Source: a virus (lineage: Duplodnaviria; Heunggongvirae; Uroviricota; Caudoviricetes). Taken from it: a stretch of DNA of 13,714 nt. Of the stretch, positions 7,666 through 13,441 are shown piece by piece; the stretch's first letter is position 1, and each line of letters starts with the position of its first letter. The position numbers and the translations under genes are program-made. The notes under the pieces were generated by a model, which saw nothing but the letters and a program-made list of their open reading frames with translations, searched no databases and had not been told where the DNA came from. The DNA is taken from the IMG/VR virus record IMGVR_UViG_2693429599_000004; one strand, written 5' to 3'.

Positions 7666-8199
7666 TTATCTGTCGATTCCCCAGCACGCCAGCGCGCTCT
7701 CCTGGTCACGACGGGATACCTGACCATAACAGTTATTTGAGCGGATACGGCAGTCTCTGCCACCGTCCTTAATCCACCAGCGAATCGCCTCACACGCTCC
7801 CCTGCGGTCACCAGCATTCAGCCGCTTATAAAACGTCGACGGGAAACACTTACCGGGGCCAATGTTATAGGGACAGAATGACGCTATACCCGCTTTCTGT
7901 GGTTCGGTCAGTGGAACTTTAATATTGCGCTCCACCCATGCCAGCGCCTTATCCCGTTCAATGGCATTAACCTGGTCGCATTTTTCCTTCGACAGTTTCA
8001 TGCCCGGAATAACAGGTTTACCATCCACCATTGTGGCACCGCGGCAGATGGTCCAGATACCCGCACCATCACGGTATGCCGTTGTGTGGTTACCTTCTTT
8101 TTCATCCAGAAACTGGTCGAGAATATCAGGCGCAGGCGCACCGATGGCAATCAACGCCAGAACGGCAGCCGACAGGCCATATTTGATTTTGGTGTTCAT
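7666..8199 (-). CDS. R: Endolysin R, lysozyme with N-terminal signal-arrest-release (SAR) domain
   Basis: 177 aa; Gly/Ala-rich weakly hydrophobic N-terminus (GLSAAVLALIAIGAPA) then a lysozyme catalytic region (EGNHTTAYRDGAGIWTICRGAT). Matches the Stx-phage/P21-type R from memory. Confidence 0.9.
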   Translation of the reverse strand: MNTKIKYGLSAAVLALIAIGAPAPDILDQFLDEKEGNHTTAYRDGAGIWTICRGATMVDGKPVIPGMKLSKEKCDQVNAIERDKALAWVERNIKVPLTEPQKAGIASFCPYNIGPGKCFPSTFYKRLNAGDRRGACEAIRWWIKDGGRDCRIRSNNCYGQVSRRDQESALACWGIDR

Positions 8200-8327
8200 G
8201 GATATTTATCAGGATTTATCGGTTCCGAATCCCTGGATATGTTAAATCTTCAGCCCGCCAGCGGTAGGACACTGGCGTTTTTCCTGATGGCTGAAATATA
8301 TCTGACAATTTCAGTAGAGGATTAACC

Positions 8328-8642
8328 ATGCATAACGATCAACATAATTATGATTTATGCCTGCAAGCCATAAATGAGCGGGTAAAATCAGAGTGCCTCT
8401 TACTCCTCCCACAAGAACACGATGCAGTAAAATCCATTCAGGCTGAGCCGTATGGACATCTCACACCTGTGACTCTCGGCATTATCGCCAGAGCATTAAC
8501 ACAGCCCATGCTTATGCGTATTAAGACCAATATAAATAACTGGTTGAATGAAGAATTAAGCTACCTTGATTGTGAGTGGGACAATCATTACGCAAAAACA
8601 CAAAAAGAACGCATCTTCAGTCGATTATCCAGCAACAGATAA
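8328..8642 (+). CDS. Hypothetical protein (104 aa), convergent partner inside the holin-endolysin insert
   Basis: ATG at 8328 with GAGG SD 7 nt upstream. Opposite strand to the late operon; stop lies 10 bp from the stop of the 268-aa gene. No motif recognised. Confidence 0.5.
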   Translation: MHNDQHNYDLCLQAINERVKSECLLLLPQEHDAVKSIQAEPYGHLTPVTLGIIARALTQPMLMRIKTNINNWLNEELSYLDCEWDNHYAKTQKERIFSRLSSNR

Positions 8643-8651
8643 CGAGCCACC

Positions 8652-9458
8652 TTATATACGCCCTTTCAGATAAGTCATCCCCGGCTGCATCCAGTCAACA
8701 GGTGCTTTCTTAAAGGGCGTATTATCAAAATCACGCAGAAGAGCCTCCAGCACAACTGCATCATTGTCAGCACCACTGGCCATCATTTCAATCTCAGCTG
8801 CTACCTGCAGATATCCCATGCAACGACCAATGCGCTTCATCAGCCCCTGCTTTTTATTGTTCTTCAGGTAATCAATGGCAAATTCAATGAGCGCCTCACT
8901 ATGCTGGTGCGATGGCGGTGTTAATTTCCCATTTTCTGAGATGGTTATTTTCCCGCCATCTCCGTATACAACAAAGGATGGCCGGTTACACTCCCATTCC
9001 TGATCTTTATCAGGTGCAGACGCAATAAAATAACGTTTATTTCCTTCCTCTCCGGCACTTTTAACCGTAATGGAGTACTCAGACTGCAGACAAGACGCCT
9101 CTTTTTCTGACCGCAGTGTTGACGGCGGCATCTTCAGAGAACCAGTAATTCTTCCCGGTAGCTTTCCTTTGTAGGTTATCAACACATCCTGCGCCTCTAA
9201 AATTATGGGGCGCTTTTCCGGCAACGGTTCGTTCCCTTCACATAACCCGGCAGCAACATCCATGAAAAACTGCTTCGCCTGCTTTTTCGCCTCAGCTTCG
9301 TAAAACTCCAGCGTGGCACCTTCAGTACGGTCAAGACTAATCGCCACATTTGGCAACAACAGTGACGGATACCCACCAATTTCCAGTACCACAGTAACAG
9401 TAATCTTATCCGGGTAATTATTTATCCCTTTAACAACCAGTTCGTATTTTTTCTTCAT
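8652..9458 (-). CDS. Hypothetical protein (268 aa) inserted between pinholin and endolysin
   Basis: ATG at 9458 lies 4 nt after the holin stop, with GGGGAGAG SD inside the holin 3' end. Long uninterrupted ORF. No catalytic motif, signal peptide or TM segment recognised by eye. Confidence 0.65.
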   Translation of the reverse strand: MKKKYELVVKGINNYPDKITVTVVLEIGGYPSLLLPNVAISLDRTEGATLEFYEAEAKKQAKQFFMDVAAGLCEGNEPLPEKRPIILEAQDVLITYKGKLPGRITGSLKMPPSTLRSEKEASCLQSEYSITVKSAGEEGNKRYFIASAPDKDQEWECNRPSFVVYGDGGKITISENGKLTPPSHQHSEALIEFAIDYLKNNKKQGLMKRIGRCMGYLQVAAEIEMMASGADNDAVVLEALLRDFDNTPFKKAPVDWMQPGMTYLKGRI

Positions 9459-9462
9459 CGCT

Positions 9463-9678
9463 TTACTCTCCCCGCGCCGCCTTACGCCGGTCCTCTCTGA
9501 TTTTGAAATACAGGTTAGTCAGATATGTCAGCAGCCCAAACAGCAGACTCCCCAGCACGCCTATTGCCGCCCACTGAGACGGGGAAACCCTGTCCAGCAA
9601 CTGCAGGAACCAGTAGCCCGTTCCCACCGCTGACGTGGTGTATGACACACCTGTTGTGATTTTTTCCATCTGGTACAT
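9463..9678 (-). CDS. S: Pinholin S (phage 21 S21-like class II holin) with dual-start motif
   Basis: [71 protein letters not shown] matches S21 from memory; two ATGs three codons apart; GGGAGA SD. Upstream part of the track ORF (to 9783) rejected. Confidence 0.9.
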
Positions 9679-12300: not shown

Positions 12301-12333
12301 ATCAATATAAACAGCCCCTCCGGAGAGGGGCTG
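12301..12333 (-). terminator. Rho-independent terminator (minus strand) inside the cargo region
   Basis: Minus strand CAGCCCCTC-TCCG-GAGGGGCTG (9-bp perfect GC-rich stem, 4-nt loop) followed by TTTATATTGATTTTGT. Confidence 0.65.
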
Positions 12334-12724
12334 GAGAGTGGCGCTATGTGCCATTGCATGGTGCCGGGTGCCTCCCGGTGAATTCAGTACCAGCACCTGA
12401 ATCCGCGATTATCCCATATACCTACTCGCTGATTGCCCCTCCGCACAGGGGGATTCACCATGCCAGTTTCTTTTAACAAACTCCCCGCAAACCAGACAAC
12501 AGTCAACCGCCTGAATTGTGAAGTATTTAAAAATTTCTCCCGCTAACTGATACCCGGCTAACAGTCTGGCGTTTTCTTTTTCAGCAACGGGAAAGCAGCA
12601 ACCACCACACCCGCCACCAGCACACCGTCAGCCAGCACTGACATTATCCGGCTGCTGCAATGCCATTCACAAAAACAGTAAGCAATCACTTTTTACCGTA
12701 ACCGGTGATAATCCAGATATGTAT

Positions 12725-13188: not shown

Positions 13189-13265
13189 TGGCGCGCTGTA
13201 CTGGATTCGAACCAGTGACCGATTGCTTAGAAGGCAATTGCTCTGTCCGGCTGAGCTAACAACGC
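13189..13265 (-). tRNA. argO: tRNA-Arg (anticodon UCU), phage argO/argU-like
   Basis: 77-nt cloverleaf read by hand: acceptor GCGTTGT/ACAGCGC, D-arm TAGCTCAGCCGGACAGAGC, anticodon loop CTTCTAA, T-arm GGTTCGAATCC, encoded CCA. Resembles E. coli argU. Confidence 0.9.
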
Positions 13266-13365
13266 TGAATACCGATAATGGACCGCCATCGGGGACCCGC
13301 CCCCGCACCAACAACCCTGTTATCGTGTCGTCTGCTCTTCCTGATAAGCTAATGGCGGTTTGTGA

Positions 13366-13441
13366 TGGTGGCCCTTGCTGGATTTGAACCAGCGACCTGG
13401 CGATTATGAGTCGCTCGCTCTCACCACTGAGCTAAAGGGCC
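13366..13441 (-). tRNA. ileZ: tRNA-Ile2 (anticodon CAU, lysidine type; ileX/ileZ-like), formally tRNA-Met by anticodon
   Basis: 76-nt cloverleaf: GGCCCTT acceptor, GCTCAGTGGTGAGAGC D-arm, anticodon CAT at 34-36, GGTTCAAATCC T-arm, encoded CCA. Near-identical to E. coli ileX from memory. Confidence 0.88.

Follow-up and report, generated by a model that had tools for sequence, protein, structure and literature searches.

Layout of the S-R interval

The window analysed here is the whole 13,714-nt stretch of a Caudoviricetes genome deposited as IMG/VR record IMGVR_UViG_2693429599_000004. The element in question is a 1.26 kb block at positions 8200-9462, which lies between the holin gene S and the endolysin gene R of a lambdoid lysis cassette. 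The block carries two intact genes, a 268-amino-acid (aa) open reading frame (ORF), referred to below as the long YdfR gene, and a 104-aa ORF on the opposite strand, referred to as ORF104. Its features, with the flanking lysis genes, are as follows.

9463-9678, minus strand: S, a P21-type class II holin of the pinholin family, 71 aa (PF04971, E 9e-33; phrog_9876 and phrog_20, 'holin')
9466-9473, minus strand: Shine-Dalgarno (SD)-like sequence GGGGAGAG for the 268-aa ORF, within the 3' end of S (read from the sequence)
8652-9458, minus strand: 268-aa ORF, the long YdfR gene (ORF map; PF07041, phrog_1085)
8328-8642, plus strand: ORF104, a 104-aa gene for a predicted soluble five-helix protein, convergent with the long YdfR gene (phrog_1853)
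7666-8199, minus strand: R, a lysozyme-family endolysin with a Gly/Ala-rich N-terminal segment (PF00959, E 2.8e-25; phrog_7, 'endolysin')

The coordinates and the gene order given in the initial annotation for S, the 268-aa ORF, the 104-aa ORF and R all hold. The ATG of the 268-aa ORF lies 4 nt past the S stop codon, with its SD-like sequence inside S, and the convergent ORF104 has its own SD, AGAGGA (8316-8321), at a distance of 6 nt from the ATG. Between the two stop codons there are 9 nt (8643-8651), not 10 bp as first stated. The placement of one gene in the Q-dependent late transcript also stands, with the 268-aa ORF directly after S, and ORF104 is indeed an opposite-strand unit with its own start signals, namely its SD and a conserved promoter-like sequence. 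The R DNA is ~90% identical to rrrQ and to the R genes of Shiga toxin (Stx) phages; by analogy with R21, R would be an endolysin of the signal-arrest-release (SAR) type.

The long YdfR protein and its mosaic anatomy

It had been stated that neither protein carries a recognisable motif. This does not apply to the 268-aa protein, residues 1-100 of which match PF07041 (DUF1327) with 147.2 bits, where the gathering cut-off is 25. Over its full length, the protein matches phrog_1085 (E 2.5e-159), a family listed as function unknown. In public sources it is called 'YdfR family protein' and belongs to a 90% cluster of 584 sequences. The following regions can be distinguished.

9231-9458, minus strand: N-terminal DUF1327 core, aa 1-76 (PF07041), modelled by AlphaFold as three strands followed by a long helix, with a predicted local distance difference test score (pLDDT) of 65-88 for aa 1-70
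9099-9230, minus strand: basic linker, aa 77-120 (from the alignment), isoelectric point 9.3, pLDDT <40 and predicted to be disordered
8652-9098, minus strand: conserved C-terminal region, aa 121-268 plus stop, with invariant residues that include H, GR, LQxAA, PxK, W, PG and YL

Judged from its sequence, the 268-aa ORF is a YdfR-family member in a long form, composed of the N-domain, the linker and a conserved C-domain. No membrane segment, signal peptide or hydrophobic N-terminus was found in it (maximum 19-residue hydropathy 1.31). The N-domain is 44% identical to K-12 YdfR across 78 aa. Through its first 72 residues, K-12 YdfR binds RNase E 1-597, the catalytic half of that enzyme, as two-hybrid and co-purification assays showed; it also pulls down DNase-resistant nucleic acid/RNA, and few transcripts were altered when it was over-produced (PMC13232886). 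Literature searches on ydfR, DUF1327, essQ/rrrQ and phage 86 found no functional work besides that paper. It should be mentioned that the Prokaryotic Genome Annotation Pipeline (PGAP) treats the intact long ORF as a pseudogene with 'missing C-terminus' (e.g. L002 8924-9259, NZ_CM129860), because its reference model is the short K-12 form, and that the conserved C-domain DNA is left unannotated by PGAP in many complete E. coli genomes.

Comparison of the window with BP-4795, 783R2, PhiR5_1, Stx2_95 and Stx2_12E129 resolves five modules: A, the DUF1327 core (aa 1-76); A2, the basic linker (aa 77-120), ending ...LRSEK; B, a coiled-coil segment; C1, ...LSEKE..YSITVKSAGEEGNKRYFIASAPDKDQ; and C2, EWECNRPSFVV...YLKGRI. 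The window protein has the composition A+A2+C1+C2 and looks like the result of an in-frame loss of B between two SEK(D/E) motifs. Other phages carry A+A2 only (114 aa), A+A2+B, A+A2+B+C2 (329 aa), or B'+C without DUF1327.

A search for the C-region among 1.84 billion cluster representatives returned only 21 proteins. In its distant homologues (35-45% identity), an N-domain-like segment comes first, with a coiled coil. The 260-262-aa proteins of Salmonella are 27-28% identical to the window protein (E 2e-26 and 2e-25), in alignments that span most of the window protein for the 260-aa form and nearly all of it for the 262-aa form. Because both the distant homologues and the Salmonella proteins keep the N-domain, the coiled coil and the C-domain, these alignments indicate that the long multi-domain YdfR is the ancestral form.

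Deletion variants, both in-frame and out-of-frame, are very frequent. The 114-aa gene of the BP-4795 type stops (...PPLA, then stop) within a leftover of the palindrome that belongs to the ORF104 leader described below (L004 2094-2175), and the deletion in this type spans about window 9123 to 8265. Since the 114-aa frame ends inside a remnant of the palindrome, the BP-4795-type gene must be a deletion product of the arrangement with the long YdfR gene plus the cassette. Matches in Stx1a phages have the same query coverage, spans and identity as the BP-4795 type.

ORF104 and its convergent partner

ORF104 matches phrog_1853, also listed as function unknown, over its full length (E 8.4e-50). Its dN/dS ratio is 0.24-0.37, with codon-position differences of 18/6/27, and its length is 103-106 aa in most alleles and 111 aa in the sole metagenomic copy (L106), down to 41% identity. 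ORF104 is a real gene under purifying selection, as is the 268-aa gene. A profile search with ORF104 collected 41 clusters from Escherichia and Salmonella, in which the Salmonella members are 105-106 aa long and 41-47% identical. The AlphaFold model of ORF104 contains five helices (pLDDT 87.8, predicted template modelling score (pTM) 0.81), and no transmembrane segment, signal or lipobox was detected in the protein (maximum 19-residue hydropathy 1.16).

Neither protein had a match in NCBIfam or PADLOC at E up to 0.1, and no Pfam family recurred at E up to 10 among 21 members of the ORF104 family. Sequence searches of the PDB with both proteins and with the family profiles gave nothing significant; the best matches, KEOPS Pcc1 (E 0.034), a designed four-helix bundle (0.037) and the RpiR N-domain (0.44), were dismissed as non-significant. 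The structure prediction and fold search recommended in the initial annotation yielded models for both proteins and no informative fold match for either.

The context of ORF104 is very constant. In 17 of 17 loci (10 unique sequences), close copies of ORF104 lie tail-to-tail with a gene that carries module C2, and these loci include cassettes with a holin only 42% identical as well as contigs where the other neighbour is not R. All nine alleles with context examined, drawn from Escherichia, Salmonella and metagenomes at 41-100% identity, are convergent with a long YdfR-family gene, with a spacing that ranges from a 4-nt overlap to a 19-nt gap, inside or outside a lysis cassette. In Salmonella prophages, the ORF104 homologue is convergent with the 260-262-aa long YdfR gene, upstream of the holin; two further E. 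coli alleles of ORF104 (58-61% identity) are likewise paired. On the metagenomic contig of a distant C-domain homologue, P0140, a convergent 111-aa gene directly past its stop codon encodes a protein 43% identical to ORF104 (E 7e-34), and no S or R was seen around the pair on this contig. ORF104 and the long YdfR gene are a conserved tail-to-tail pair wherever ORF104 occurs, across Escherichia and Salmonella. As to whether the two genes always co-occur, which the initial annotation had posed as a question for a survey, ORF104 was paired with a long YdfR-family gene in every allele examined and the converse fails.

In Salmonella and metagenomic relatives, HicA/HicB toxin-antitoxin genes are direct neighbours of the long YdfR gene and are situated between Q and the late genes (L107 2280-2934; L109 5260-5894; L111 5587-6224).

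The leader in front of ORF104

A structured region precedes ORF104. Its elements are listed below.

8200-8327, plus strand: leader of the ORF104 cassette, 128 nt; on the minus strand this is the 5' region of R
8216-8221, plus strand: -35-like TTATCG
8238-8243, plus strand: -10-like TATGTT, at an N16 spacer from TTATCG
8253-8277, plus strand: hairpin 1, the palindrome GCCCGCCAGCGGTAGGACACTGGCG, then TTTTT
8291-8297 and 8308-8314, plus strand: hairpin 2, CTGAAAT/ATTTCAG

The palindrome is nearly invariant 5' of every ORF104 homologue, even where the proteins are only 41-47% identical. An exact-pattern scan of IMG/VR for the palindrome gave at least 120 matches, and among the matches listed (L117-L196) there are 77 unique canonical contexts, in which the palindrome is embedded in a unit of ~150 nt. 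The canonical pattern of hairpin 1 is GCCCGYCAGYG..CRCTGGCG. Among the same listed matches, TAnnnT occurs at a fixed offset, 9 nt before the palindrome, in 65 of the 77 copies, and TT(G/A)C sits 15-16 nt upstream of TAnnnT in the leader copies. For pair 10-27 of hairpin 1, 48 of the listed copies have U.G and 20 have C-G, a pattern in favour of the cargo-sense strand; pair 14-23 varies among U-A, U.G and C-G. Hairpin 2 has the loop AUGGCUGAUUA and compensating stem changes, and is followed by the SD and the ATG. The 5' UCAGCC can pair with GGCUGA of this second loop, a pairing for which compensating changes are seen in L116 and L111. The possibility that the leader encodes a conserved upstream peptide was rejected, since the ATGGCTG... 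frame and its stop are not conserved and one Salmonella allele has ATA for ATG.

In lambdoid phages of Escherichia and Salmonella, the same leader stands in front of small ORFs (45-210 aa) that belong to at least 23 unrelated families. In HK022, it is found between the tail genes I and J, before the antisense 'moron gene product gp23' (NC_002166 13962-14126; L237 2501-2665). At least three unrelated antisense ORFs share the R-proximal place and the left part of the leader, among them ORF104, an 86-aa ORF in PhiR5_1 and a 90-aa ORF in 783R2. Membership of a single superfamily that unites all cargo ORFs was rejected for ORF104, for which the hhalign probability is at most 1% against every other family, although some of the other leader-cargo families are related among themselves by hhalign.

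The leader of the window is a diverged copy of this unit (TTATCG, TATGTT). Directly after hairpin 1, the E. coli ORF104 alleles have TTTT(T/A) whereas canonical leaders have CACTC. Hairpin 1 with its T-run resembles an intrinsic terminator placed in a 5' leader, and an attenuator is possible. Neither the window leader nor a canonical copy corresponds to an Rfam family; isrK alone was matched, at E 0.63 and on the opposite strand. Literature searches found no description of the gene pair or of the shared cassette leader. The conserved gene pair and the leader common to at least 23 small ORFs are the new observations of this study.

Prevalence of the filled slot

For a measure of how common the filled interval is, 71 IMG/VR loci were compared that have a holin at least 97% identical to the window S and an R gene downstream, a sample with phage 21 itself outside it. 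S abuts R, with a gap of 1-4 nt, in only 10 of these loci, while about 60 contain inserts of 358-1316 nt that are mostly built on DUF1327; the exact architecture of the window recurs in three. The premise that S and R normally abut is not borne out by these close relatives, and K-12 Qin itself has the order essQ-ydfR-rrrQ. The survey of related loci that had been suggested does reveal an insert present/absent polymorphism between S and R.

DUF1327 DNA is found in 3105 of 5426 complete E. coli genomes, at 6634 places. The DNA of the C-terminal module is present in 780 of these genomes, ORF104 DNA in 90, and the whole 1.26 kb block in 55, O104:H4 strains among them. When one genome per species was searched, the DUF1327 N-domain was found only in Escherichia, Shigella and two bins of metagenome-assembled genomes (MAGs). 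The MAGs that contain these loci, L101 and L103, are labelled Veillonella parvula and Bacillota, and most likely both loci are mis-binned Escherichia prophage contigs.

The filling of the S-R interval is a very common accessory of this cassette class. The window shows it near its fullest state, and the layout as such is ordinary and already present in public annotation, in phage 86. The initial annotation had named ubiquity at this position in annotated phages, with a known role, as an outcome that would speak against its proposal: the YdfR gene is ubiquitous there, but without a known role. The slot is not tied to lysis, since metagenomic and Salmonella relatives have the long gene upstream of the holin, often with other genes between.

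Interpretation of the locus

We tentatively favour the reading that the interval is an accessory slot of the P21-holin-type lambdoid cassette, filled with a late-expressed long YdfR gene and a moron-type 104-aa cargo gene, and lying outside the lysis machinery. The 268-aa protein would be a cytoplasmic product transcribed with the late operon, with its DUF1327 N-domain joined to the conserved C-domain. By analogy with its K-12 homologue, and with modest confidence, it may act late, with host RNA turnover (via RNase E or RNA) as its target and not the envelope. ORF104 would be a moron-type cargo opposed to the late operon, low in G+C and equipped with its own SD, a structured 5' leader and a sigma-70-like promoter. 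It may be transcribed from the repressed prophage and then shut off by head-on, Q-modified late transcription together with antisense pairing. With no room for a terminator between the convergent genes, the ORF104 mRNA would have to extend into the 3' end of the YdfR gene as an antisense transcript. The ORF104 product may be a partner or an antagonist of the C-domain protein.

The moron concept (Juhala et al. 2000) is taken here as summarised in PMC3594210. With respect to extra DNA of deviating base composition, the insert is present or absent in near-identical cassettes and has a G+C of 0.41-0.43 against 0.53-0.55; ORF104 itself has 0.41, and the S-R interval as a whole 0.41-0.46 against 0.53-0.55 for S, R and Rz. 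ORF104 would fit the concept save for an absent terminator.

Several observations weigh against the accessory-slot reading as proposed. No terminator-like site was found on the plus strand 3' of ORF104, so the own-terminator feature of morons is missing. The promoter agrees poorly with the consensus (3/6 and 4/6 positions) and falls below the threshold of a simple sigma-70 scan, and hairpin 1 with the T-run could end most transcripts ahead of ORF104. The link to RNase E is drawn from a homologue that is 44% identical over 78 aa, and over-production of that homologue barely changed the transcriptome. Genes with the C-domain but without ORF104 are ~9 times commoner (e.g. Stx2_95, L107, L108), and ORF104 is therefore not needed for their function. 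The tail-to-tail linkage could also persist merely since a spacing of 0-19 nt leaves scant room for recombination.

A more specific proposal, which we regard as possible but doubtful, is that the two genes are a dedicated effector-modulator pair, in which the 104-aa protein, made from the prophage, would hold the late, RNase E- or RNA-directed long YdfR in check. The leader, with its promoter, its 5'-terminal hairpin and the AUGGCUGAUUA-loop hairpin pairing with the 5' UCAGCC, would then be an undescribed portable regulatory RNA/promoter unit that drives small, diverse moron genes in Escherichia and Salmonella lambdoid phages. We consider it rather unlikely that the pair is an exclusion, abortive-infection or toxin-antidote module, with ORF104 as the active factor expressed in the lysogen and the C-domain protein as a counterpart that it requires, be it antidote, target mimic or activator. 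ORF104 is never seen without a C-domain gene while C-domain genes are often alone, as orphan antidotes would be, and the presence of one leader before at least 23 diverse small cargo ORFs suggests arms-race cargo; moreover, moron cassettes of the HK97 type include a superinfection-exclusion gene (PMC3594210), and HicAB adjoins the pair in Salmonella and metagenomic relatives. However, an antidote made only late, from the Q-dependent transcript, has the wrong timing for protection of a lysogen, the dN/dS values give no sign of diversifying selection within the ORF104 family, and ORF104 is unrelated to the other cargo families in profile-profile comparison. ORF104 also lacks the transmembrane segment of HK97 gp15, and PADLOC has no match for either protein.

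That one or both proteins set lysis timing through the pinholin or the SAR endolysin, as antiholin-like or endolysin-regulating factors, is improbable in our judgement. The position of the genes between S and R, with the 268-aa ORF starting just past the S stop codon, would agree with such a role, and a genetic screen, as cited in PMC13232886, tied K-12 ydfR to envelope integrity. Against this, neither protein has a signal peptide or a membrane segment, and the Salmonella and metagenomic forms, as a pair or as the long gene, lie upstream of the holin with other genes between. The near-identical cassettes that do without the insert (10/71), together with the many truncated forms, are a better fit to a dispensable accessory. 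More generally, none of the roles suggested in the initial annotation (lysis timing, exclusion or abortive infection, antisense-controlled toxin) gained support from the sequence, as PADLOC, NCBIfam, further Pfam, transmembrane and fold searches were all uninformative. At the other extreme, the interval could be decaying junk, mosaic remnants without a present role. The very frequent deletion variants, the PGAP pseudogene flag and the unannotated C-domain in many genomes point that way, but the flag stems from the short reference model, both ORFs are intact, the 268-aa cluster is large (584 members), ORF104 is under purifying selection, and the length and motifs of both families are kept between Escherichia and Salmonella. 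We regard this last reading as very improbable.

The accessory-slot reading has some practical meaning. YdfR-family DNA is carried by more than half of the complete E. coli genomes and by many Stx phages, and its role is uncharacterised; the ancestral long form, its fixed opposite-strand partner and the cassette class of this partner, with the shared structured leader, make it testable now. Pipeline annotation can be corrected where an intact long gene is wrongly marked as a pseudogene. Lysis biology gains a negative result: the S-R gap is a tolerated cargo site and contributes no new lysis component.

Neighbouring features in the window

The late region of the window contains further features outside the S-R interval.

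6711-7184: Rz-type spanin (ORF/profile match)
7181-7542 and 7543-7575, both minus strand: R-Rz interval, likewise filled, with two small ORFs (phrog_1115 and phrog_4906), function uncharacterised, and a terminator-like hairpin
12303-12492, minus strand: STnc100 small RNA (Rfam), full-length match of 132 bits, between the tRNA genes (13189-13441) and a NanS-p-like gene

A strong terminator-like hairpin (13 pairs plus a T-run) is located just after R and ahead of both R-Rz ORFs, inside the late operon. The gene upstream of S is a NanS-p-like esterase gene. Between the tRNA genes and this gene, no stx-sized ORF was found on the minus strand among ORFs of at least 90 aa, a limit at which stxB lies.

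Comparison with known systems

Antiholins and membrane-bound lysis regulators are localised to the membrane or the periplasm, which is predicted for neither of the two window proteins. No component of the known defence and toxin-antitoxin systems in PADLOC-DB, Pfam and NCBIfam was matched at E up to 0.1.

The bor gene of lambda and Stx phages is, like ORF104, a small opposite-strand gene beside the lysis genes, and in phage 86 it is on the plus strand next to the minus-strand rz. It is expressed from the prophage. Bor is, however, an outer-membrane lipoprotein encoded beyond Rz. ORF104, by contrast, is located between the YdfR gene and R together with its fixed partner gene, and its product shows neither a signal nor a lipobox.

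The closest characterised relative of the long YdfR protein is YdfR of K-12 Qin (b1555, P76160). It belongs to the same N-domain family, and its gene likewise begins 4 nt after a class II holin gene and precedes that of an R-type lysozyme: in Qin, essQ is followed after a 4-nt gap by ydfR (103 aa), which has an ATGA overlap with rrrQ. K-12 YdfR lacks the C-domain and its gene overlaps the start of rrrQ, whereas the window protein has 268 aa with a C-domain, and its gene is 452 nt from R. The window protein departs in this respect from the short, single-domain form of ~100-115 aa that the K-12 reference represents. Binding to RNase E and RNA has been reported for K-12 YdfR only (PMC13232886).

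Stx2 phage 86 has the same two-gene block between s and r, with 97.4% nucleotide identity over 2.2 kb and a 104-aa protein that is 100% identical. The products are named gp05 (YP_794052, 'YdfR family protein') and gp06 (YP_794053, 'hypothetical protein'), and literature searches found no functional study of either. Phage 86 differs in having stx2 as well as an ant gene between R and Rz, neither of which was found in the window.

The morons of HK97 and HK022 (HK97 gp15 and HK022 gp23 'srb') are likewise independent low-G+C units in the late operon. Their cargo is unrelated to ORF104, which is predicted to be soluble and has no terminator, whereas HK97 gp15 is an inner-membrane exclusion protein. 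HK022 gp23 has the conserved leader in common with ORF104 and, as ORF104, is antisense to its neighbours.

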